NCBI GenBank assembly: GCA_039810425.1
Contig: JBDHWW010000077.1
Coordinates: forward strand, 1 to 10,739
Origin: Pseudobdellovibrionaceae bacterium
Lineage (GTDB): Bacteria > Bdellovibrionota > Bdellovibrionia > Bdellovibrionales > Bdellovibrionaceae
Direction: 5' to 3'
Length of the DNA: 10,739 nt
The translations under genes and the position numbers were made by a program. How positions within the stretch are numbered: the first letter of the stretch is position 1; each line of letters begins with the position of its first letter. The notes below the pieces were generated by a model, which saw only the letters and a program-made list of their open reading frames with translations, did no database searches and had not been told where the DNA came from. Positions 1 to 10,739 of this stretch are shown here, piece by piece.

Positions 1-98
1 TTTGGAAACTTAGGAATGATCAAAAACTCAGTGTGGAATCAGGTCCTTTGTCTAGCAAACTTGTGGGTAATAGTAAGGGCGAGGGCGGGGGCGCCGGT

Positions 99-572
99 CT
101 ACCTTGTCAGTAGCTGAGAAAGGGTTTCTGAGTTGTCAAAAGTGCGGCCCGCCAGGTCTTCGAGTGATTTGCGGACAAGCAGATTGTCCATAACATAAGC
201 CTTGGTGCGGAAAAAGAAACCGCCAATCGAAGAATATCCCCGAAGCCATGAAGCAGGAAAGCAGCCGAGGTTTTCTGAAGCCTCGGCGATGAATTGCCCA
301 GCTGTCATACGGCTAAGATCCCGGTAGACAATTTGATTTGCTTTGCCCGTGGTGTTTGTCACAAATATGCTTTCGATTTCGCTCATTTGCTCGTCGCTGA
401 GTTGTGAGCAGTAAGTACGGCTGCCCTCCAAGGCGCGTTCGATATTGGTGGTCTCAAGGCGGTCATTCACCTTTTGCAAATAGCGCGAGATGAATTCCGG
501 CGCCGATATCGTGGTCGCCGCTTGAGCTTGAAACGCCAAAATTAAGAAAAACCCCACTAAGAACGTCTTCAT
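99..572 (-). CDS. Hypothetical secreted protein (157 aa)
   Basis: ORF with an N-terminal Sec-type signal peptide (MKTFLVGFFLILAFQAQA/A). SD-like GGAGAGG lies just upstream of the ATG. No family recognised. Confidence 0.75.
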   Translation of the reverse strand: MKTFLVGFFLILAFQAQAATTISAPEFISRYLQKVNDRLETTNIERALEGSRTYCSQLSDEQMSEIESIFVTNTTGKANQIVYRDLSRMTAGQFIAEASENLGCFPASWLRGYSSIGGFFFRTKAYVMDNLLVRKSLEDLAGRTFDNSETLSQLLTR

Positions 573-680
573 GACCTCTCCCGTAGCCAGAACACCTACA
601 AAGTTCGCGCCAAGGATTTTAGCGAATAGGAAAGGGCTCTTGAAAGGTCCGTGGGAAAAATTACAAAAAAGTGTCGAGAA

Positions 681-1865
681 TCAGAACAACGGGCTTATTT
701 TATAAATGCCCGAACCCCATTCCTGGTTGCCAACAGCCGAATGTAAAATAGTGTAGAACACGATCTCGTTGCGTTCATTGATGCGAACGTTTCCGCCAAA
801 GCCAGGAAAGGTTGGATTTGCAAGTATGCACCCCAGACCCCGATCCGTTGGGATCTGATCGCCCTCGCCAATCACGCGACGAACTTGCTGGCCATCAGCC
901 AGGTAAATGCCCCGTAAACCTTTTGAGTTTATCGCGCGAAAAACCGCAACACCTTGGCTATTTACCTGAGGAGCAAAGAGCTCGATAACAGAAATGCCGT
1001 CCTGACCCTCGGTGGCATAGCTCGTCTGAACACCATTGCCGTCAATCACTAAAGTTTTTGCGCCCCCCTTAAGAACACCGATGAAAGCGACAAGACCATT
1101 CTCTGAGAGGGAAACGGAATTCGTAAATCCGGTGTATAGGGACTGAGGATCGCTTTTTTGATCACGGGCAACGATGCGGTGGGTGCCATCGGCGTTCAGC
1201 AAAAGAATCTGATCCGGGAAGGCGTCGCTCCAATCCATCTTATTGCCGACGCGGATTTTGCTCGCCATTTGTCGGCGGCTATTGACCATCGGACCAAAAA
1301 GGTAAGACGCTTTAAAACCCAGCGTCTCACTTCCTTCAGAGAAAATCTGATGGAGAATTTTTTCGAAGCGGTAAAAACCGTGATCCCGGCCCGTATGCGT
1401 GCCGCGGAAAAAGATTTCGCCGCTGTTAAGAACTTGCAGGTACCCGTGAGCTATCAAATCCGTCCCCTGGCCTGGCAAAACATTGGAGATGGAATCAGAG
1501 TTCTTGTCATAGATGAAAATTCCTTCACTAGAAGCTTCGTCAAAAACCGAAACAGCGACCTGGCCATTGTCGTTCATCGCAGGCTCCGTCATGACTTTAC
1601 CTTCCGGGGTACGGAACACTATTTTACCATTAACCCAAAGCGCCTGGGTGTTTTCGCCTTCGACCGCCATCAGCTTAAAGCTGACATCCCCTTTGTTGTT
1701 AATGTTCGGGGAAGTGCTATTGAGAAAAGACATCGTGGGCAAGTTGTAAGAGTCAGGACCATTTGCGCGTGCCATGATTTCTGGGGCTTTGTAACTAGGA
1801 ATCGCGGCAAAAGATAAAGAAGAAATCGCGAAAGAGGAAAATCCGAGTAGAAGATATTTTGTCAT
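681..1865 (-). CDS. Secreted tandem NxxGxxAF-repeat (beta-propeller-like) protein, 394 aa
   Basis: Signal peptide (MTKYLLLGFSSFAISSLSFA). Seven periodic motifs: INNKGDVSF, MNDNGQVAV, VLNSGEIFF, VNSRRQMAS, LSENGLVAF, VNSQGVAVF, INERNEIVF. SD AAGGA upstream. Confidence 0.75.
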   Translation of the reverse strand: MTKYLLLGFSSFAISSLSFAAIPSYKAPEIMARANGPDSYNLPTMSFLNSTSPNINNKGDVSFKLMAVEGENTQALWVNGKIVFRTPEGKVMTEPAMNDNGQVAVSVFDEASSEGIFIYDKNSDSISNVLPGQGTDLIAHGYLQVLNSGEIFFRGTHTGRDHGFYRFEKILHQIFSEGSETLGFKASYLFGPMVNSRRQMASKIRVGNKMDWSDAFPDQILLLNADGTHRIVARDQKSDPQSLYTGFTNSVSLSENGLVAFIGVLKGGAKTLVIDGNGVQTSYATEGQDGISVIELFAPQVNSQGVAVFRAINSKGLRGIYLADGQQVRRVIGEGDQIPTDRGLGCILANPTFPGFGGNVRINERNEIVFYTILHSAVGNQEWGSGIYKISPLF

Positions 1866-2030
1866 TCGATGGTTCCTTTTTATGTAACACTACAATGGCG
1901 TGCTGATTTTTAAATTTCAACATCCCTTGCTTTTATTCTCAATGTGTTTTCGTTTTCAATGAGCTTTTCTTCACTTTACTCAGGGGCAAACCGGACCTTA
2001 GGATTTTTCAACAGTCCAGGGGAGGCGGCC

Positions 2031-3671
2031 ATGGCAGACAGAAAGTGCTATTTGGTAGGTGGAGGAATCGCAGCGCTTGCAAGCGCTGCCTATCTAATCC
2101 GAGAAGGGAATCTTTCGGGCGAAAGTATTTTTATTATCGAAGAAGGCGCGATGGCCGGCGGCAGCCTGGATGCCAGCGGTGACGCTGAGAAAGGTTATGT
2201 CATGCGGGGAGGCCGCATGCTGAATTTTTCTTACCTCTGCACTTATGATCTTCTTTCATTTATTCCCTCCGTTGGTGACAAAGACAAAACGGTGATGGAT
2301 GAAATCCGCGAATTTAATCAGAGGATCCAAACAAACTCCCACTGCCGCCTCGTCCATCATGGTGAAAAAATCGACTCAACGAGCATGGGTTTTAATTATA
2401 AAGACCGCTTTGATATTCTTGAAGTCATGATGAAATCAGAAGAAAGCCTAGGCGGCCGGAGTATCGAGGATTGCTTTCGCAGCGCCTTCTTTGAAACCAA
2501 CTTCTGGCATATGTGGGCGACGATGTTCGCTTTTCAACCCTGGCATAGTGCGGTGGAATTTAAGCGATACCTCCATCGGTTTATCCATGAATTTTCTCGC
2601 ATCAATACGCTGGAAGGCGTTGATCGCACTCCGTACAATCAGTACGACTCGATCGTTCTGCCGTTGCTCACGTGGCTGAAACACAAAGGTGTTCGCTTTA
2701 TGATGGAAACCGAGGTCACCGATCTTGAATTTGCCGACATAGGGCCTGTGAACCCTGAACTTGGCAATTCTGGCGCGACGAAGGCCGTTTCAAAAATTTT
2801 CTACCGTCGCAACGAAGATCAAAACTACATTCCAATAGCCCCGGAAGACTTGGTTTTTGTCACGATGGGCTCCATGACGGCGTCTTCGAGTCTGGGCTCG
2901 ATGAAGACGGCTCCGTTATTAAAATCCAAGCGGGAGGGAGGCGCTTGGGCCCTTTGGGAAAGAGTGGCCTTGAGCCGTCCCGAGTTTGGCAGGCCGGCGG
3001 TTTTCTCAAGCCGCGTGGATGAATCTAAATGGGTCTCATTCACGGTGACTTCGAAAGGGCATAAGTTTTTTGATTTGATGGAAGAGTTCACGGGAAATGA
3101 GGCTGGAACCGGCGGGCTCGTCACTTTTACGGACTCAAATTGGCTTATGTCTGTGGTGTTGGCCCATCAGCCGCATTTCTTAAATCAATCGAAAGATGTT
3201 ACCGTCTTCTGGAGCTATGGCCTTTACGTCGATCGTCCGGGCAATTTTGTGCAAAAGAAAATGTCGGAATGCAACGGTGAAGAAATTCTGACGGAACTTT
3301 GTTCACATTTGAACTTCACAGAAGAAATGCCTGAGATCATCGCCCACGCCAACTGCATCCCTTGTATGATGCCGTTTATTACAAGCCAGTTTTTAACTCG
3401 AAATAAAGGAGACCGCCCGGAGGTTATCCCAAAAGAATATTTGAATCTCGCCCTTATTGGGCAGTACTGTGAAATTCCCGAAGATGTGGTGTTTACCGTG
3501 GAGTACTCGGTGCGGTCAGCGCAGACGGCGGTTTTTAGCTTGCTTCAGTTGGAGCGTGAGCCTGTGTCGGTTTACGGGGGAGTCCGGGACTTCCAAGTCT
3601 TGTTTGAATCTCTGAAGACGATGTTTAAAGAGACTGCCGAGCGAACGCGAGAAGAACACCCGCCGCTTTAG
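2031..3671 (+). CDS. ohyA: Oleate hydratase (myosin-cross-reactive antigen family, FAD-dependent), 546 aa
   Basis: FAD-binding motif YLVGGGIAAL, then GGSLD...GYVMRGGRM, TNFWHMWATMFAFQPWHSAVEFKRY, RTPYNQYDS, MMPFITSQF and DVVFTVEYSVRSA. ATG 2031 is chosen over the track's 1944 start because GGAGG sits at 2021-2025. Confidence 0.93.
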   Translation: MADRKCYLVGGGIAALASAAYLIREGNLSGESIFIIEEGAMAGGSLDASGDAEKGYVMRGGRMLNFSYLCTYDLLSFIPSVGDKDKTVMDEIREFNQRIQTNSHCRLVHHGEKIDSTSMGFNYKDRFDILEVMMKSEESLGGRSIEDCFRSAFFETNFWHMWATMFAFQPWHSAVEFKRYLHRFIHEFSRINTLEGVDRTPYNQYDSIVLPLLTWLKHKGVRFMMETEVTDLEFADIGPVNPELGNSGATKAVSKIFYRRNEDQNYIPIAPEDLVFVTMGSMTASSSLGSMKTAPLLKSKREGGAWALWERVALSRPEFGRPAVFSSRVDESKWVSFTVTSKGHKFFDLMEEFTGNEAGTGGLVTFTDSNWLMSVVLAHQPHFLNQSKDVTVFWSYGLYVDRPGNFVQKKMSECNGEEILTELCSHLNFTEEMPEIIAHANCIPCMMPFITSQFLTRNKGDRPEVIPKEYLNLALIGQYCEIPEDVVFTVEYSVRSAQTAVFSLLQLEREPVSVYGGVRDFQVLFESLKTMFKETAERTREEHPPL

Positions 3672-3720
3672 AGGCCAGCCCCAGCCCTTAAAACACCACA
3701 GAGAAGAATAAGGGCCAGTT

Positions 3721-4590
3721 TTATTTCTTTCGCGGTGTTGGGGGAGCTTTTTTGCCAGGGCCGGCACGCAGGCCATCCTCATCGATGCTGATGAGACGTT
3801 GCTTGTAGAGGCCACCAAGAGCAATTTTGTACTTCTTTTTACTGACGCCAAAGAGTTCATAGATTTTCCCGGGGGGCGTCTTTTCGGTGAGCGCTAAGAA
3901 GCCACTATTCTTTGCAAGGAGTTCAAGGATTTTTGGTCCGACATCCTCGGCGCCCTGATGCCCGGTTTTTTGTAAGCCGAGGTCGATCTTGCCGTCTTCC
4001 GAGCGAATATTGCGAATATAGCCACGGATTTTTTGGCCAATTTTTAAAGGCTGGAAAACTTCGTTGTGATAGAGCATGCCCTGGTGAATGCCGTTGATGA
4101 TCGCCTTATAGCCAAGATCCGTGCGATGATAAATCATCAAATCGACGCTCTGGCCGGCTTCAAGGTGCGCAGGTTCTTTCGATAAATAGCGTTCTATGCG
4201 CATCGAAGAGGCGATACGGTCGGTGTTATCAAGATAAACATAAACGACGACTTGATCGCCCGGGCGAATGTTGTGGGTTTGTTCTGAAAATGGCAAGAAG
4301 AGGTCTTTATCAAGACCCCATGCAAGGAAGGCGCCGATTTTCGTAGCAGCCACCACGGTCAGGTAGGCAAATTCACCCACTTGCGCTTGCGGAGTTTCGG
4401 TGGTGGCCATCAAGCGGTCCTCGGAATCAAAGCAGACAAAAACTTCGAGCACGTCACCAATTTGAGTGCTCTCAGGCACGAGCTTTTTCGGCAAAAGAAT
4501 TTCGCCGTCTTCGCCGCCGTCCAAATAGACGCCGAAATCAACGAGTTTAGTGACTGTAAGTTTATTGAATCTTCCGATATCGACTAGCAT
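3721..4590 (-). CDS. cvfB: CvfB/YitL family S1 RNA-binding protein
   Basis: Tandem S1 domains (FGVYLDGGEDGEILLP, DSEDRLMATT, GAFLAWGLDKDLFLPFSEQ, TDLGYKAIIN, DGKIDL) and a C-terminal winged helix (IYELFGVSKKKYKIALGGLYKQRLI). Confidence 0.93.
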   Translation of the reverse strand: MLVDIGRFNKLTVTKLVDFGVYLDGGEDGEILLPKKLVPESTQIGDVLEVFVCFDSEDRLMATTETPQAQVGEFAYLTVVAATKIGAFLAWGLDKDLFLPFSEQTHNIRPGDQVVVYVYLDNTDRIASSMRIERYLSKEPAHLEAGQSVDLMIYHRTDLGYKAIINGIHQGMLYHNEVFQPLKIGQKIRGYIRNIRSEDGKIDLGLQKTGHQGAEDVGPKILELLAKNSGFLALTEKTPPGKIYELFGVSKKKYKIALGGLYKQRLISIDEDGLRAGPGKKAPPTPRKK

Positions 4591-4598
4591 GGCGACGA

Positions 4599-4627
4599 AC
4601 CTTAACAGGGCCCCTCGGTAGGGTCAA
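4599..4627 (-). promoter_or_regulatory. Putative sigma70 promoter of cvfB
   Basis: Minus strand reads TTGACC (4627-4622), N17, TAAGGT (4604-4599) with an extended TGn. Only 8 nt separate it from the ATG and there is no SD. Confidence 0.55.
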
Positions 4628-4658
4628 TAGAGGCTGACTCTAAATGGATTCATAGATT

Positions 4659-4935
4659 TTATTTTATACCGTGCTTTGGTTGATGGGTGGTTATTGTGGG
4701 GTGCTTTGCGCGAAGTTCGCGCAGGGCCGCCATAAAAGGCTCCATTCCAGGAAATGGTGAGATTTTTCCAAGTTTGCGACCTTGTGTGAAAAAGAAAAAG
4801 GCAGTCATGTCCCCAGAAAAACACACAGATAAGCTCTTCTGCGTGTTTTTCCAGCGCCTGATCAAATGTGTCGGGCCGAAGCTGTTCGCACTCAAGTGCA
4901 GCGAAAAACGGAGAGGGCATTGATGCTTTGAGCAT
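4659..4935 (-). pseudogene. Thioredoxin-fold protein with internal deletion and frameshift
   Basis: GGAGG SD and ATG at 4935. The first frame reads ...TFDQALEKHAEELICVFFWGHDC, stopping short of a complete CxxC. A second frame continues AFFFFTQGRKLGKISPFPGMEPFMAALRELR, which resembles a thioredoxin C-terminus. The junction is at about 4800-4804. Confidence 0.75.
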
Positions 4936-4961
4936 AGGGCCTCCGATTGATAATAATGTCT

Positions 4962-5006
4962 AAAATAGGATGTATTATTGACCCGGGCAAGGATTATGCG
5001 CATGAT
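4962..5006. promoter_or_regulatory. Overlapping divergent sigma70-like promoters
   Basis: Plus strand: TTGACC (4978-4983), N17, CATGAT (5001-5006). Minus strand: TTGCCC (4990-4985), N17, TATTTT (4967-4962). Confidence 0.5.
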
Positions 5007-5036
5007 AGACGCCTGAATCATTCAGAGAGGATATCT

Positions 5037-5483
5037 ATGAAATCAATCACAGAATTTGCAGTTTTCACATTGAATAAAGGCCTGGCAGCGAAAGCGGCAT
5101 TGGCAAGCCAAGGAAAAAGCCCTGAAGAAATCCAAACAAGCCTCGGTGAAGCCTTCAAATTCGAAGGTGATAAGTTAAAGTATTTTATTAACGCACTCGA
5201 CGTAGCTGGCCAAAATCAGCAGGATTTGAAGCGTGTGTTTGTTATTTCTCTCGCGGACGGGGAGTCTGCTCCTGCGAAAGCGGTTCAGTTTGAAGAGCAT
5301 CATTATGTTCCAGAGTTCTTAAACACGGCTAAACCACAGGCAACAGCAACAGATGCTAAAGGTGGCCGGGGCGGAGGTAAAGGGGGACGCGGAGGCGGCC
5401 GGGGCGAGAAAAAAGGCGGATCTCCCTGGGGTATGACTCCAGAAGAGAAAGCGGCGAAAGGGAAGGCCGCACCCAAGGCTTAG
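5037..5483 (+). CDS. Hypothetical protein with Gly/Arg/Lys-rich (RGG) C-terminal tail, 148 aa
   Basis: SD GAGAGGA at 5025-5031 before ATG 5037. Globular N-terminus (MKSITEFAVFTL...KRVFVISLADGE...HHYVPEF), then KGGRGGGKGGRGGGRGEKKGGSPWG. Followed by a terminator. Confidence 0.8.
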   Translation: MKSITEFAVFTLNKGLAAKAALASQGKSPEEIQTSLGEAFKFEGDKLKYFINALDVAGQNQQDLKRVFVISLADGESAPAKAVQFEEHHYVPEFLNTAKPQATATDAKGGRGGGKGGRGGGRGEKKGGSPWGMTPEEKAAKGKAAPKA

Positions 5484-5492
5484 TTTGAAGGT

Positions 5493-5520
5493 AGGGTCCG
5501 TCGAAAGAGGGGCCCTTTTT
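5493..5520 (+). terminator. Rho-independent terminator
   Basis: AGGGTCCGTC-GAAA-GAGGGGCCCT hairpin (one mismatch, one G-U pair, GNRA loop) followed by a T run, 10 nt after the stop codon. Confidence 0.7.
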
Positions 5521-5827
5521 AGATCTCCGCAGGGGCTCTCGCCGGGAGTATCGGTTTCCAGAGAGCCTCTATTGAAATTTCCGCCGGTACCAACTTTTTG
5601 AAAAGCACGTTCAGATCGGTTTCAGAAAGAGTTTCTTTTTCTAGCAGCTGTTGGGCGCCATCCTCGAGCACTGGCCGATTTTGTTGCAGAATCCTTTCCG
5701 TGATTTTTTTTGCGATATCGATGACGTTTTTGATTTCAAGGTCAATCAAGTGAGCCGTGTCTTCGCTGTAGTGACGGATCTCATGGCTCTGCAGAGGGCT
5801 TTCGAGGAATGGATGGGGTTGTGTATA
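5519..5827 (-). pseudogene. ftsH: 3' fragment of ATP-dependent metalloprotease FtsH (peptidase M41 C-terminal helices only)
   Basis: Extending the 5519-5749 ORF upstream in frame gives ...PHPFLESPLQSHEIRHYSEDTAHLIDLEIKNVIDIAKKITERILQQNRPVLEDGAQQLLEKETLSETDL, matching the FtsH pattern YSEETA..IDxEV...LLEKETL. An in-frame TAG lies at 5854-5852. No AAA domain or HExxH is present. Confidence 0.8.
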
Positions 5828-5871
5828 TCTATCTAAACTATTGAAATAGTTCTACATAGCAGCGAACGAAA

Positions 5872-6903
5872 TTACAAGTCACTACAAATCGAGAACTCGA
5901 TGTCGGTGGTATGAGACGCAGTTATTTGAACTTGTGATAGTTGAGTGATCGAAATCATGGGAACCGTATGACTGCAATCGAAGTTTGAAATAATGGGGTA
6001 GGGGCGAGGTCCAATAATCTCTTTGAATAATTCATCGTAGGTAAACGGAGCACCCTCTTGATTATAAAACTCAGGTTTTCCAATAAGGAGACCTTTTATC
6101 TTCTCAAATACGCCGATGAATTTGAGCTGCTGAAGATGGCGCTCGGTTCGACTCAGAGGAGCTTCCATGTCTTCAAGAAGTAGGATTTTATCATGAAGAT
6201 CAGGCCAATAAGGTGTTCCCGCTGCAGACATCAGGGTGTTTAGATTCAAAGCTAAAATTTCTCCGCTGGCAACACCGGGATGAAGAGCTTTCCAGCCCTC
6301 ATTGTTCTGCCAATGGCGAGGCAGGTTTTTCCATTCGCCGTTAGACCAATCTCTCTTGTGATTGCTCCATCGAAGTGGAGGTGAGATTTTGCGAAATCCT
6401 TTGTTTGGCATAGTCACAGCATCCAGAAACCATTGTGTGCTTTCCTGAATTCCATTGGGCCATTCTCCAAACCAGCACATGACGCTGGGGCCGTATATTG
6501 TGCGTAAGCCAGAGAACTTCAAAATGGCAAGATGCAAAGATGTGATATCGCTGAATCCACAAATGAGTTTTCTTTGCTCACGTATTTTTTTAAAATCTAA
6601 AAATGGAATCAGACTCGAAGAGTTGTTACCACCAATAGTCGATATGAGCCCACTCACTTCGGGGTCTTCGATTAAAGACATAAACTCTTGCGCGCGCTCT
6701 TCTGGCGTACCAGAGCGATAACCTTGAGATTTACGAGCCTGCGTGAGGTCACCCAATTTAACTTTAAAACCAAGCTGCTCAAGATTTTTTACACCATTAA
6801 CAAAGAGTCCTTCATTCCAAGAATAGCCGGGGCTTGAGGGGGTGAATACACCGATGGTGTCGCCTCTTTTTAAGTGTTTGGGTGAGAGGATTGATATTGC
6901 CAC
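5872..6903 (-). CDS. mccF: S66 family peptidase, MccF-like (microcin C self-immunity type / LD-carboxypeptidase family)
   Basis: Ser-Glu-His triad motifs GFSDIT, LLLEDM and FDCSHTVP. YRSGTPEERAQEF, STIGGNNSSSLIPFLD, FGEWP and WSNHKRDW closely parallel the E. coli MccF sequence as recalled. GTG start, no signal peptide. Confidence 0.88.
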   Translation of the reverse strand: MAISILSPKHLKRGDTIGVFTPSSPGYSWNEGLFVNGVKNLEQLGFKVKLGDLTQARKSQGYRSGTPEERAQEFMSLIEDPEVSGLISTIGGNNSSSLIPFLDFKKIREQRKLICGFSDITSLHLAILKFSGLRTIYGPSVMCWFGEWPNGIQESTQWFLDAVTMPNKGFRKISPPLRWSNHKRDWSNGEWKNLPRHWQNNEGWKALHPGVASGEILALNLNTLMSAAGTPYWPDLHDKILLLEDMEAPLSRTERHLQQLKFIGVFEKIKGLLIGKPEFYNQEGAPFTYDELFKEIIGPRPYPIISNFDCSHTVPMISITQLSQVQITASHTTDIEFSICSDL

Positions 6904-6978
6904 AATTTAGGATGTCATAGGCCAAGGATTCATACAAGAACCCAAATAGGGAATCCTTAGAGATGCTTTCAAACCGGA

Positions 6979-7001
6979 GTTTTCTGCCGGCGGCAGAAAA
7001 C
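6979..7001. repeat. Perfect 11-bp inverted repeat
   Basis: GTTTTCTGCCG-G-CGGCAGAAAAC, read directly. Confidence 0.8.
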
Positions 7002-7045
7002 GACAACCCCCAAAATGTCGAAAAAAGCGGGAAACTTCAGAACCT

Positions 7046-7064
7046 ACTCCGACGCAGTCGGAGT
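7046..7064. repeat. Perfect 8-bp inverted repeat
   Basis: ACTCCGAC-GCA-GTCGGAGT, read directly. Confidence 0.7.
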
Positions 7065-7075
7065 GCAGACAGCAC

Positions 7076-7108
7076 AAATAAAAAAACCGCCAGAAGGGCG
7101 GTTGTTTT
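7076..7108 (-). terminator. Rho-independent terminator (possibly bidirectional) downstream of the SIR2 gene
   Basis: The minus strand reads AACCGCC-CTTCT-GGCGGTT followed by TTTTTATTT. A T-rich tail is also present on the plus strand. Confidence 0.75.
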
Positions 7109-7230
7109 ATTTGGATGGGATTGTGGCTTGGGGTGTAAGTATATGAATTAACTTGTGAAAATTATTTAATAGCTACAAAGCCTACAGGTATACTGTGTGA
7201 TCATGGAATGTTGGCTGGAAATCATTACAA

Positions 7231-8088
7231 TTAAACTGGGTCGGTACCGAGGCTACGTTCTTCTTGTACCAGCTCAAAAAGCTCCTGTAGTGCAGGTTCA
7301 AGTGCGTCATAGCTATCGCCATATTCTAATACGTTAAAACCATATGCTTTTTTAAACATCTCTTTTTCTATAAAATTGTAAGAACCGTTTGTGCTCAGAA
7401 CATAGTGAGGAACCGTATTTTTTGAAATATTCTTAACTTCCTCTAGTATAAGAAGCACGTCAGGGTCATCCATTTTGCAACCTAAAAAAACAATGGTGTT
7501 GGTGAGGAACAGCGCTTTTAGAACTTCATAAAAATTCGGGTGATCACGCTTAGCCTCGTGGTATCCCGACATCGTAAAGATCATTTTATTCACTTCGTCT
7601 ATTGAACCGTGCGCTTTTAGTATGAGTCGGTTGTCAGATCTTATCTCCGTGACTAGATCTCCTGAATAATAGGTAATCACCTTATAGCCAGGATTATTGC
7701 CATGAGCACAGTATCGTTCGTAGATCTTGTCGAAATTAGTGGTAATCACTATTCTGGAATCAAGCTTAAGTATGGTTTCATGAATTTTGCTTGGGATATA
7801 TGCTTGCGTAAGATATTCTTCATCCAAGAAGCTTTTATACTCAGTCTCATCAGCATTCTTTTTAATCAGTTCCAATGCCAAAAGTAACTTATTTTCGTTG
7901 ACGTATTTAGCAACAAGATTTCTATCTTCGTTCGAAGCGAGAAGTTGTTTAGCTTCGAGGATAAATGACTTCCAGGTCTTTGGGGTTCTGCCTTCTGTGG
8001 TTTTAGATGTAGCTGAAACCCCGGATCCAAGAAAGAAAATTACACGTCGTGTGGAAATTTGTCTGATTAGACTCTTTGGCCAATCCAC
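7231..8088 (-). CDS. SIR2-like domain protein (SIR2_2 type, putative NADase defence effector), 285 aa
   Basis: Sirtuin motifs IFFLGSGVS, IVITTNFD, ILKAHGS and IVFLGCKMDDPD. Lacks the Zn-finger Cys pairs of CobB deacylases. The GTG start is 1 nt after the upstream stop (TAA-C-GTG). Confidence 0.9.
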   Translation of the reverse strand: MDWPKSLIRQISTRRVIFFLGSGVSATSKTTEGRTPKTWKSFILEAKQLLASNEDRNLVAKYVNENKLLLALELIKKNADETEYKSFLDEEYLTQAYIPSKIHETILKLDSRIVITTNFDKIYERYCAHGNNPGYKVITYYSGDLVTEIRSDNRLILKAHGSIDEVNKMIFTMSGYHEAKRDHPNFYEVLKALFLTNTIVFLGCKMDDPDVLLILEEVKNISKNTVPHYVLSTNGSYNFIEKEMFKKAYGFNVLEYGDSYDALEPALQELFELVQEERSLGTDPV

Positions 8089-8089
8089 G

Positions 8090-9118
8090 TTATTTACCTA
8101 AATTGGTTAGCAATTTGAGAGTTAATTCCTTCAGTAAGTCATCATACTCGTCAATTTGACGATTCATGCTGCCAACGACTCCTTCCGTGCCCTTGAGCTT
8201 GTGAATTGGACAGTTATTCGATTGCGCTCTTGGGATTAGACTATAAACATAAGGGATATGGCCCAATTCTAAATCATCCGTATTTATATTTGGAGATATG
8301 AAATCCTTCATATATGCATTAACTGTTTGAGGAATCTCTTGCATGATTTCTTCATAAGCCTTAACGGGTCGCTTTCCTGCTTTGAATTTTCTAGTTACAT
8401 ACTGCTGAATAGAATAGCCAACGATTCTAAACTTTTTATTTGTATCCAGAACAATTTCGCCAGCATATTTGGAGAAGATAGAGGAATTTTCAGACTCCGC
8501 GTTTGCTTTGCGCTGCTGATAAAGCTTCTGCCATCGCAATATCCATTCGGAGATATTTTTAATCCCCAAAATACTGAATATATCACAACCCAATGGCGAA
8601 ACGATATTATCACTGCCTAGTAAAATAGTTCTATTTAGGGCTCCCAGGGAAGGGCCAACATCAAGGAAAATATAGTCGTACTGTGATCCATATAAGGTTA
8701 ATACTTGCGAGAGCCAGTTGGTTTGGCGGAACCCACCGATTCCAGCTCTTGAGAGATCTGCCCAGGCTTGACTGAGAACATCTTCAATTAGGGAGAGCTT
8801 TGGGTGTCCAGGTATTAGATCAATTTCAAAATTATTTTCGGTAGCTTTCACTGGGACAATAGTTTTGGATATAGTTGATTCTCCGACTAGGAAAGGATCA
8901 AAAATATCTAGCAAAGTCTGAAACTTTGGTGTTTTAGAAAAGTAAAGATCTTGAACTATGTCATCTGGTAAAATTGATTGAGTTGCATTACATTGTGGAT
9001 CTGCATCAATCAATAGAACTTTTTTTTTATGTGTTGTTGAAAGATAGGATGCAATGTTGCAACAAAGAGTGGTCTTTCCAACACCTCCCTTGTTATTAAA
9101 AAACACTATCGATTTCAT
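8090..9118 (-). CDS. ParA/Soj-like (AAA_31/CbiA family) ATPase, 342 aa
   Basis: Deviant Walker A FFNNKGGVGKTT, A' motif LLIDADPQCNAT, and Walker B region YIFLDVGPSLGALNR. SD AGGGGGA. No parB nearby. Confidence 0.9.
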   Translation of the reverse strand: MKSIVFFNNKGGVGKTTLCCNIASYLSTTHKKKVLLIDADPQCNATQSILPDDIVQDLYFSKTPKFQTLLDIFDPFLVGESTISKTIVPVKATENNFEIDLIPGHPKLSLIEDVLSQAWADLSRAGIGGFRQTNWLSQVLTLYGSQYDYIFLDVGPSLGALNRTILLGSDNIVSPLGCDIFSILGIKNISEWILRWQKLYQQRKANAESENSSIFSKYAGEIVLDTNKKFRIVGYSIQQYVTRKFKAGKRPVKAYEEIMQEIPQTVNAYMKDFISPNINTDDLELGHIPYVYSLIPRAQSNNCPIHKLKGTEGVVGSMNRQIDEYDDLLKELTLKLLTNLGK

Positions 9119-9228
9119 TCAAGTTCCCCCTAGGAACAGCTCCACCGGTAAGAAATATATTCGGTTTAGTTTACAAGTGTTCACGGAGTTTCTCATTTAA
9201 GCAAGTTCCCACTGGAAGGAGAACCTGC

Positions 9229-10374
9229 TTATAGATCAAGGTCGGGAAGACGTTTTGCTTTTGAATTTAGCACTCTTTCAATCTGTGCTTTCTCAATGCG
9301 ATAGTTATCAACAGGTAATCCACTCTTGATACGCAGTTCGATCGCGCGATCAGTGAAAAGCGTATTGATGTTCTTGCGATATTTGGCAAGCAGCTCGCGT
9401 TCCATTTCAATCTCTTGGAAGCGGTTGAAGATTGGAGCGCACTCGCCAAGCTCAGTACCAACCCAACGACGCCCCTTCATTTCGGCCACAATGTAAGTTG
9501 TCCCAGAGCCGCCAAATGGATCGAAGACTAGGTCGCCCTCCCGGGTCGCAATATCCAAAACCCGGTCCAGTAAACGAATGCTGAGCTCATTAGCATCTCT
9601 ATTTTTGTACTTGGAGTGACGAACTGGTGGGATATCAGTCCAAACGTCGCGCAGGTTAAGACCTTCGGGATTCATTTTACTTTTATATCCACCATAGTCA
9701 TTCTGTTCCTGCCCGCATCGTACACACGTTTTTATGGGTGTTCTCGGCGGTGCAAAGTGATTAGGTCTGTCACCCTTTATGAAGTACAAAAGGCTGTAGT
9801 GTGAAGGGTATAGCTTGTTGGGAATTGGCATAGATGCAGTAATATCTACGGCAATCCAATTCTTAAACGTTAGCTGGCTATTTAGATAGTCAGCGATGTA
9901 GATCGACCACTTCGGAATGTTGTAAACAAAGATTGACCCACCGGGCTTTAATTTTTTAATGCACAGATCAAGCCACTGACGAGTCCATTCGATATAGTAC
10001 TCGTCTGGAACGTCATCAGACTTTGACCCCTCATAAGTTTTACGTAGATTGAATGGAGGATCCGCGAAGATGCAATCAAAAGTATCATCAGGGGTTGACT
10101 TCAAATAGGCCACGCAGTCACCTTGATAGAGCTTACCAAGCTTAGTCTCGAACTTTAGTAGTGGCTTTTTGTCGTTTGAGTGAATCTCATTGCGTAGAGC
10201 TTGGATATTGGCAATCTCTTTAACAAGATCCTCAGATGGAGATAGAAGCTGATTCAGAACTTCATCAGGAAGCTTTGAAAGATAGGATCTTAATCCTACG
10301 GACTTACCTGTTTTTTTAGGGGTGCGGCCAGTGCGGCTTTCCCAATTTTTTGCTTTTCCAGCCTTTATAGACAT
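9229..10374 (-). CDS. Site-specific DNA methyltransferase, beta class N4C/N6A, M.BamHI-like
   Basis: Motif IV DPPF precedes motif I FDPFGGSGTT (beta order). The segments YNIPKW, LYPSHYSLLY, CxxC..DYGGYKSKMNP and PVRHSKYKNR..NELS are characteristic of M.BamHI-like enzymes as recalled. SD GAGG. Confidence 0.9.
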   Translation of the reverse strand: MSIKAGKAKNWESRTGRTPKKTGKSVGLRSYLSKLPDEVLNQLLSPSEDLVKEIANIQALRNEIHSNDKKPLLKFETKLGKLYQGDCVAYLKSTPDDTFDCIFADPPFNLRKTYEGSKSDDVPDEYYIEWTRQWLDLCIKKLKPGGSIFVYNIPKWSIYIADYLNSQLTFKNWIAVDITASMPIPNKLYPSHYSLLYFIKGDRPNHFAPPRTPIKTCVRCGQEQNDYGGYKSKMNPEGLNLRDVWTDIPPVRHSKYKNRDANELSIRLLDRVLDIATREGDLVFDPFGGSGTTYIVAEMKGRRWVGTELGECAPIFNRFQEIEMERELLAKYRKNINTLFTDRAIELRIKSGLPVDNYRIEKAQIERVLNSKAKRLPDLDL

Positions 10375-10467
10375 GGGACCTCGACTTTCTGATTGATTAA
10401 CATTTAGGTTCGGATGAAGTCATCTATTTATGTTGCTAAAGTACGTGCAAATTCTGATCCTTTTAAT

Positions 10468-10680
10468 ATGAAAATAGTAAGTAAATACTGGGTATTAGGT
10501 ACAGAATCCGGCCACTATAAAAACGCTTTGTCCGAGATTGACAACGCTATCGAAAAGACACGCATCGTCATTCAGCCTACAAAAAAGGCAAATGGGGTAA
10601 AGCCAATTAAGGTCGGCGTCATCGAACAGCTCAAAAAATCTGGGTGGTCCGACGAACATCCTATTGAACTGTTTTTTTAG
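10468..10680 (+). pseudogene. Truncated BamHI-family type II restriction endonuclease (N-terminal 70 aa)
   Basis: IQPTKKANGVKPIK...GWSDEHPIE parallels BamHI INNTEKNCNGVVPIK...NWYREKPLD. It is divergent from the MTase, as in the BamHI locus. It stops before the catalytic region, and all three frames close by 10726. Confidence 0.75.
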
Positions 10681-10739
10681 GAGTGAGACGAATCTGATTT
10701 TTTTGGTTCGTCAGTTTGATTGTTAAACTTTTATACAGT

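Follow-up and report, generated by a model that had tools for sequence, protein, structure and literature searches.

A ParA-like ATPase gene and a stand-alone SIR2 gene form a conserved pair that is linked to a DNA methylase in a Pseudobdellovibrionaceae bacterium

Introduction

SIR2 domains of the SIR2_2 type, which contain a catalytic Asn/His pair, are present in DSR2, ThsA of type I Thoeris, Avs5, KomC of Kongming, and FAM118B. The catalytic domain is fused to a sensor or signal domain in DSR2 (C-terminal domain), ThsA (SLOG), and Avs5 (STAND), whereas KomC uses a partner protein, KomB. Oligomerization or filament formation has been reported as the switch for several sirtuins of the DSR2, ThsA, Avs5, KomC, and FAM118B types. 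In the SIR2-HerA (Nezha) anti-phage system, the two genes of one operon encode a P-loop ATPase and a small SIR2 NADase, the effector, whose activation takes place in an assembly of the two proteins. Effectors of the suicide type can also be genetically linked to restriction-modification (RM) systems, as in PrrC-EcoprrI, where an anticodon nuclease, PrrC, is encoded among the genes of a type I RM operon and would act once restriction has failed. Here, we analyze a 10,739-nt stretch of DNA, referred to as the window, which is the complete contig C77 (JBDHWW010000077.1, positions 1 to 10,739) of a 3.54-Mb draft genome of a Pseudobdellovibrionaceae bacterium (GCA_039810425.1). The window encodes a ParA-like ATPase followed by a stand-alone SIR2 protein (7231..9118), and next to this pair a DNA methylase and an apparent remnant of a BamHI-family restriction enzyme.

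The pair resembles SIR2-HerA in its two-gene organization and in the combination of a P-loop ATPase with a small SIR2 protein. However, HerA is described as a hexamer of the FtsK-HerA/RecA-like class, whereas the ATPase in the window is of the dimeric ParA/SIMIBI type and is not homologous to it. The SIR2 protein has the same type of catalytic domain as DSR2, ThsA, Avs5, KomC, and FAM118B, but is a bare domain of 285 residues whose sole constant partner is ParA. Unlike PrrC, the effector in the window is a predicted NADase with its own ATPase, and such pairs stand beside a BamHI-family type II RM system or a lone methylase.

The combination of ParA and a sirtuin has been predicted before. Li, Burroughs, and Aravind (bioRxiv 10.64898/2026.10.19.760177, 22 Oct 2026) place it computationally among 'ParA-effector systems' with a role in immunity. 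According to the main text of that preprint, ParA would intercept invading DNA through C-terminal extensions, and the effector would be released if this block fails; the concept of effectors embedded in RM loci is also cited there. As a computational prediction, the core pair is therefore on record, and the suggestion in a preliminary description of the window that it might be uncatalogued no longer stands. That description knew of no characterized ParA-SIR2 system, and PADLOC-DB v2.0.0 has no system containing this ParA. The available text of a study on modular defense components (10.1101/2025.09.30.679545) does not mention ParA. The terms methyl, MTase, and BamHI have no match in the main text of the ParA-effector preprint, and the methylase-linked architecture described below, which is near-obligate in two clades, is a variant absent from that text.

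The analysis reveals that ParA and SIR2 form a conserved, horizontally mobile two-gene unit, and that in the clade of the window this unit is tied to a methylase, often with a BamHI-family restriction gene too. We estimate a probability of roughly 0.55 that the pair acts by abortive infection, with a SIR2 NADase under the control of ParA, and is combined in this lineage with a type II RM system into a layered cassette.

Gene organization of the locus

The ParA-like ATPase belongs to the SIMIBI class with a deviant Walker A motif. Its gene (8090..9118, minus strand) starts with ATG and encodes 342 residues. The SIR2 gene (7231..8088, minus strand) starts with GTG and encodes 285 residues. Both are present in the list of open reading frames (ORFs) with stop-free translations. 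A single base (8089) separates the TAA stop codon of ParA (8092-8090) from the GTG start codon of SIR2 (8088-8086). The GTG start agrees with the N termini of the homologs aligned to it (M-I-x-W-P versus V-D-W-P).

The GC content is 0.38-0.39 over 7000-9250, compared with 0.43-0.53 over 1-6000. The best same-genus relative is 88% identical, solely over part of 4600-5813, and this synteny is too weak to define the borders of an island. A terminator-like hairpin, with a 7-bp stem containing five GC pairs and followed by a T-run, is located on the minus strand at 7103-7085, about 130 nt past the stop codon of SIR2. The hairpin is weakly significant, as the scanned region contains two terminator-like sites and 3.2 are expected by chance from shuffled sequences. 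Upstream of ParA, a 110-nt spacer (9119..9228, minus strand) separates the pair from the methylase gene and contains one weak promoter-like site (9183-9154). Promoter-like sites, including this one, are at chance level, with nine found and 8.9 expected.

No ParB domain was detected by Pfam in the 11 main ORFs of the window. The sole ParB_N match of the genome is located on contig C7, and no recurrent ParB is found among the flanks of the 84 loci with the pair that were collected as described below. The one-nucleotide spacing of the two genes, the AT-rich composition, the terminator, and the lack of a parB gene in the window had all been noted in the preliminary description. These features are borne out by the present analysis, the terminator with the weak significance given above.

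The SIR2 protein

The SIR2 protein matches the Pfam family SIR2_2 with an E-value of 2.2e-23. It contains the GxG motif of the Rossmann fold (G21 and G23), a TTNFD motif (T116-T117-N118-F119-D120), and H160, which are invariant in 18 of 18 aligned members. N118 and H160 align with the DSR2 residues N133 and H171, the latter being the position altered in the mutant of the PDB entries of DSR2 (H171A). Among 1131 candidates scored, 175 homologs were found at E <= 0.001, and nearly all are 280-290 residues long.

The AlphaFold model of the protein has a pLDDT of 88.4. The top Foldseek matches are DSR2, SeThsA, human FAM118B, EfAvs5, and KomBC. By both sequence and fold, the top matches are anti-phage NADases (SeThsA, DSR2, Avs5, and KomC) and the filament-forming FAM118B. 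The nearest solved relatives are all NAD+-processing immune sirtuins or their vertebrate relatives (FAM118B). PADLOC finds domain-level matches alone for SIR2, to ThsA, Dsr2, and Avs5, and the NCBIfam matches of the pair are all below threshold (ParA, PrgP, BcsQ, and Dsr2/Avs5).

NADase activity of the protein is predicted from its sequence. The earlier assignment to the non-CobB, defense-NADase type is strengthened by the intact catalytic Asn and His and by the immune NADases as nearest relatives. The length of 285 residues leaves a bare SIR2 domain, as had been stated, with no fused sensor domain.

The ParA-like ATPase

The ATPase matches Pfam AAA_31 (E 1.1e-34) and CbiA. An alignment of 20 members of its family has a mean column identity of 68%, and the protein in the window contains every invariant column. 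The invariant motifs are NNKGGVGKTT, DADPQCNAT, DVGPSLGALNR, and a basic loop, FKxGxRPV. The Walker A, DxD, and Walker B motifs are all intact. The AlphaFold model has a pLDDT of 88.3, except in the basic loop at residues 244-249.

The closest solved structure is PDB 3PG5, which is matched over the full length by profile search (E 4.7e-81) and is also the top Foldseek match, with a sequence identity of 31-32%. It is followed in the Foldseek ranking by Soj, ParA, the delta protein of pSM19035, and McdA. 3PG5 is DIP2308 of Corynebacterium diphtheriae, a structural-genomics entry of unknown function that has been public since 2010. It shares with the ParA family of the window a C-terminal part that ordinary ParA and Soj do not have. 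With an identity of about 31%, 3PG5 lies outside the SIR2-coupled ParA clade. A solved structure of a relative of this ATPase thus already exists. In PADLOC-DB v2.0.0, the single match of the ATPase is PDC-M28B (E 3.6e-05), which covers the P-loop residues 2-40 alone.

All 20 of the 20 aligned family members, the protein in the window among them, share the residues N9-K10-G-G-V13-G-K15-T and D38-A-D40-P-Q42. They agree with the marks that the ParA-effector preprint (10.64898/2026.10.19.760177) words, in its main text, for the PriB1/ConB1 group, namely an Asn in the Walker A position nearest to the N terminus, a Gln two residues after DxD, and a conserved Val inside Walker A.

AhCobQ, an AAA_31 protein reported to be a lysine deacetylase (eLife, PMC11856932), was weighed as a pointer to an enzymatic function of ParA. 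It was dropped, as it has 264 residues, as that study places its activity in a C-terminal region described as particular to AhCobQ relatives, and as nothing links it to this ParA family.

Comparison with described systems

The locus was compared with the defining components of known systems. The ATPase has the AAA_31, CbiA, and ParA assignments, its best relatives are 3PG5, Soj, and ParA, and it contains no HerA domain, which separates the pair from SIR2-HerA. Type I Thoeris is composed of a SIR2-SLOG ThsA and a TIR-domain ThsB; the ThsA matches cover residues 69-235 of the SIR2 protein, and no TIR domain is present in the 11 ORFs of the window. DSR1 and DSR2 are single large proteins in which an N-terminal SIR2 domain is joined to a long C-terminal sensor region, with about 1000 residues in the solved DSR2 chains. 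The SIR2 protein has 285 residues, and its alignment with DSR2 covers residues 38-239. SPARSA contains an adjacent short Argonaute, and the 11 main ORFs have no PADLOC match to a prokaryotic Argonaute and no Pfam match to Piwi or MID. Finally, the distribution of ParB described above, with one ParB_N match on another contig and no recurrent copy in the flanks, does not correspond to a ParABS partition system.

Conservation and spread of the pair

A SIR2-based scan of one genome per species yielded 30 loci. In 27 of them, the gene immediately before SIR2, on the same strand, encodes a ParA with 41-54% identity to the ParA of the window. The three exceptions are a SIR2 fragment (L023), a SIR2 gene at the start of a contig (L029), and a spurious match of 35 residues (L030). 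The 27 genome pairs come from cyanobacteria, alpha-, beta-, and gammaproteobacteria, Bacillota, Myxococcota, Bdellovibrionota, and Desulfobacterota. In all, the hosts of the pair belong to at least eight phyla.

In a reverse search, an alignment of the ParA family was compared with metagenome contigs and yielded 80 loci. A close ParA, defined by a profile score of 239 or more, is present in 60 loci, and SIR2 lies directly downstream in 54 of these. Among the six close-ParA loci that contain no SIR2, ParA runs to the contig end in four and is a truncated fragment in two. One further locus (L108) has a frameshifted ParA together with SIR2. The remaining 19 loci contain distant ParA-like genes of about 30% identity, none of which is accompanied by SIR2.

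Among the 84 loci with both genes, the spacing between ParA and SIR2 ranges from -20 to +13 nt in 82, and 43 of these 82 are 4-nt overlaps. Such close spacing is kept far more often than chance would produce. Pairwise identities of ParA and of SIR2 are correlated, with a Spearman rho of 0.90, although the pairs are not independent and the set held a duplicate of the window (L031). Within the taxonomic family of the window, SIR2 was found in 1 of 151 genomes, which is the genome of the window itself. This sporadic occurrence, along with hosts in many phyla, indicates a horizontally moving module. The preliminary description had proposed a survey of gene neighborhoods for a conserved ParA-SIR2 pair, and the genome and metagenome loci establish such a pair. 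The operon coupling of ParA to a sirtuin effector, here with a SIR2_2 domain, also corresponds to the ParA-effector systems as outlined in the main text of the preprint.

A sister group of ParA-like proteins is coupled to a different partner. In 11 of the 17 loci examined, the gene immediately upstream of the ParA-like gene encodes a protein with SLFN_AlbA_2 and HATPase_c_4 domains. This module, found in L103, L105, L106, L107, L111, L112, L114, L116, L118, L119, and L098, is of a Schlafen/histidine-kinase type; its genes often overlap, and its ParA-like protein is about 30% identical to that of the window. It represents another two-gene module built on this ATPase chassis, and it matches the 'Histidine Kinase-Schlafen' flavor named in the preprint. 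The presence of another effector on sister ParAs points to effector swapping, in keeping with the alternative effectors of ParA-effector systems in the main text of the preprint (10.64898/2026.10.19.760177).

Other genes adjoin the ParA-like genes at single loci. In L115 (1519-5993), a ParA-like gene of the distant group starts 10 nt after a Hachiman pair composed of HamA and, behind it, a DEAD-box helicase. In L118, the ParA-like gene is followed by a gene for a ResIII helicase of 875 residues. On a Spirosoma plasmid (L039), a PDC-S28 helicase gene lies directly before the ParA-SIR2 pair, and a Septu pair adjoins.

Linkage to a DNA methylase and a restriction enzyme

The preliminary description left out two neighbors of the pair, a methylase gene and a restriction gene. 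The methylase gene (9229..10374, minus strand) is located 110 nt upstream of ParA and encodes an N4/N6 DNA methyltransferase of 381 residues, assigned here to the family MT1. It matches Pfam N6_N4_Mtase (1.7e-36) and PADLOC MTase_II (3.5e-125). The gene is intact and scores 521 bits against the MT1 profile.

The restriction gene (10414..10680, plus strand) is divergent from the methylase gene and encodes an N-terminal remnant of a BamHI-family endonuclease. The remnant has 88 residues and matches Pfam BamHI (1.9e-08) at profile positions 29-78 of 157. Its stop codon falls inside a multi-copy repeat that occupies the final 75 nt of the window, at the contig end (10665..10739), and recurs with 100% identity as the final 75 nt of two other contigs of the assembly, C27 and C99. 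The C-terminal half of the gene was not found elsewhere in the assembly at E <= 0.01. The restriction gene appears to be interrupted, in a draft assembly whose contig ends at the repeat. The 75-nt repeat probably represents one end of an insertion element with several copies, which would also have interrupted the assembly. In the window, the genes for the methylase, ParA, and SIR2 are intact, and the restriction gene appears to be cut short.

The flanks of the 84 loci were clustered by all-against-all comparison of 448 flanking ORFs, and profiles were built from the neighbors. Recurrent families are few. MT1 is present at 29 loci, a BamHI-family enzyme at 17, and a second methylase family, MT2, at 13. 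Small helix-turn-helix, controller-like proteins (six loci) and a resolvase (four loci) recur less often. An Eco47II RM pair is found at six to seven loci and is confined to one metagenome group (L052 and L054-L058).

A tree of concatenated ParA and SIR2 sequences from 72 loci was built with FastTree and midpoint-rooted, and the clades are described here without inspection of their supports. Clade A, which contains the window, has 29 leaves, and MT1 is adjacent to the pair in 23. When clade-A loci with at least 2 kb on both sides are considered, MT1 is present in 17 of 18. The eighteenth locus, L003, has a different, PglX/HmaB-like methylase gene two genes upstream. Clade B has nine leaves, and MT2 lies directly after SIR2 in eight of them, where its start overlaps the SIR2 stop codon or lies within a few nucleotides of it; the ninth contig ends 145 nt past SIR2. 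A small group of three leaves contains L037, with the order MT2-ParA-SIR2, and L064 and L069, whose contigs are too short to judge. All other 31 leaves, eight of them with full flanks, contain no methylase.

Several loci differ in their surroundings. The clade-A loci L003 (1713-4941) and L048 (1808-4988), which have no MT1, encode before the pair a PglX/HmaB/DUF1156-type methylase-like protein of about 730 residues and an ORF of 384-419 residues that has no family match. In L003, a gene for an Mrr-type nuclease directly follows SIR2. A NUDIX hydrolase gene is located directly upstream of ParA in two clade-A loci, L019 (4465-4863) and L053 (4606-5001), and in L053 a macro-domain protein of 437 residues is encoded after the methylase (8401-9714). 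Derivatives of ADP-ribose are acted on by both NUDIX and macro-domain proteins, a hint of ADP-ribose chemistry in the surroundings of SIR2. L026 (2095-8381) is a decaying cassette. Its ParA gene is split by an IS21-type element (IstB and transposase), its methylase gene is frameshifted into two ORFs, and its BamHI-family gene is reduced to the C-terminal part, while the SIR2 frame is still open.

Proposed function of the cassette

Classical ParA forms an ATP-dependent dimer and binds DNA non-specifically. ParA and SIR2 would be made from one translationally coupled transcript, and, by analogy with classical ParA, the ATPase would dimerize upon ATP binding and contact DNA in the same non-specific manner. 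ParA may either keep SIR2 inactive or scaffold its oligomerization. Invading phage or plasmid DNA would engage ParA and turn SIR2 on, and SIR2 would hydrolyze NAD+, so that the infected cell halts growth or dies before the phage cycle is completed (abortive infection). In this lineage, the pair travels together with a BamHI-family type II RM system as part of a small mobile cassette and probably acts as a second line behind that system. This model builds on the gene structure, the conservation of the pair, the intact catalytic motifs, the structural kinship, and the methylase linkage. For DNA sensing by ParA, contact between ParA and SIR2, NADase activity, and phage protection, it draws on what is known of the respective families.

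Several points weigh against this model. SIR2 domains are also capable of protein ADP-ribosylation or deacylation. We found no experimental study of the ParA-SIR2 family in the literature. Defense genes do adjoin the pair at several loci, including RM systems, Septu, BrxHI, AbiJ, type IV restriction enzymes, and PADLOC candidate systems. However, a PADLOC match lies beside the pair in just three (L039, L093, and L104) of about 30 submitted loci from the methylase-free clades. Many of these contigs are short, and the enrichment in defense islands that the preliminary description had proposed to look for is therefore not shown family-wide. The module is also rare on viral contigs, with two loci in IMG/VR, both of which carry a methylase as well, and no SIR2 homolog was found in the phage collection at E <= 1e-10. 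Finally, a purely autonomous two-gene model leaves the near-obligate methylase of two clades unexplained.

This last point leads to an alternative, which we regard as possible but distinctly less probable, that the methylase is an integral third component. In clade A and, independently, in clade B, the methylase would mark host DNA. Unmethylated incoming DNA, or DNA cut by the BamHI-type enzyme, would be bound by ParA and turn SIR2 on, and the restriction arm would be, or include, an NAD+-depleting suicide effector. The adjacency of MT1 in most clade-A leaves and in nearly all clade-A loci with full flanks favors such an arrangement, as does the substitute methylase in L003. In clade A, the restriction and methylase genes precede the pair at some loci and follow it at others, and at least five gene orders and orientations occur. 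The methylase linkage is kept throughout, which suggests selection on the linkage and argues against a frozen cassette. The methylase can also be linked to the pair with no restriction gene of the usual kind. In clade B, MT2 abuts or overlaps the SIR2 stop codon and the flanks contain no recurrent restriction gene. At six metagenome loci (L052 and L054-L058), the genes form an operon in the order MT1-ParA-SIR2, and no BamHI enzyme accompanies it. Overlapping genes in the order MT2-ParA-SIR2 are found in Salmonella enterica (L037, NZ_CP148876.1, 94998-98012), where the operon of DNA methyltransferase, ParA-family, and SIR2-family genes lies beside integrase fragments, and in a viral contig (L128). 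Operons of the L037 type are repeated in two more Salmonella records (H5 and H6).

Patterns of gene loss bear on the same alternative in two ways. The window appears to have lost its restriction gene and yet keeps the methylase, ParA, and SIR2, but orphan methylases are common after the loss of a restriction gene. Both loci with a broken MT1 (L014 and L026) also have a broken ParA, but this coincidence has a sample size of two. Moreover, the absence of a methylase from all other leaves, including those with full flanks, indicates that the pair can persist alone. The identities of ParA and MT1 are weakly correlated (rho 0.37, compared with the 0.90 of ParA and SIR2), suggesting that methylases have been exchanged. 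ParA is in addition known as a non-specific DNA binder, and no part of these proteins is known to read methylation.

An addiction role of the pair is unlikely. ParA would then act in the partition or positioning of a mobile element, and SIR2 would be a toxin that kills cells losing the element, with no part in phage defense. RM systems themselves behave as addiction modules, and resolvases, integrases, and insertion sequence elements are frequent neighbors of the pair. The pair occurs in eight PLSDB plasmid records, including pVPon1 of V. ponticus, where it lies beside ParAB, a replication initiator, and toxin-antitoxin genes. However, most copies are chromosomal, the pair has no ParB or centromere partner, and pVPon1 has a separate ParA-ParB of its own. 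The sequence marks of ParA are also those of the branch assigned to immunity in the main text of the preprint (10.64898/2026.10.19.760177).

A housekeeping role, with SIR2 as a deacylase or ADP-ribosyltransferase that the ParA-like ATPase regulates and that acts on a cellular target (possibly the methylase or the restriction enzyme), is permitted by sirtuin chemistry and would suit the NUDIX and macro-domain genes near the pair in L019 and L053, but is highly improbable given the sporadic occurrence within the family, the foreign composition of the island, the SIR2_2 rather than CobB-like type, and the nearest solved relatives, which are all immune NADases or FAM118B.

Under the abortive-infection model, the core pair is a widespread candidate immune module, known by prediction, in which an ATPase of the ParA class, known for moving DNA or protein cargo, would control an NAD+-destroying enzyme. 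The new point is the near-obligate link to a DNA methylase in two clades. If the link is functional, a methylation mark would control a suicide effector in place of a nuclease, and the survival of the pair in the window after the apparent loss of the restriction enzyme would be explained. Should methylation indeed gate SIR2, epigenetic discrimination between self and non-self would be coupled directly to abortive infection. If the genes merely travel together, the locus would still be a clean layered cassette, with restriction first and abortive infection second.

Other genes in the window

The rest of the window contains ordinary-looking genes. They encode a DUF7453/MXAN_5453-family repeat protein (681-1865), an MCRA-family oleate hydratase (1944-3671), and a CvfB-type S1-domain protein (3721-4590). 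Two ORFs that have no family match (4659-5021 and 4947-5483) and a gene for an LD-carboxypeptidase (5872-6903) are also present.

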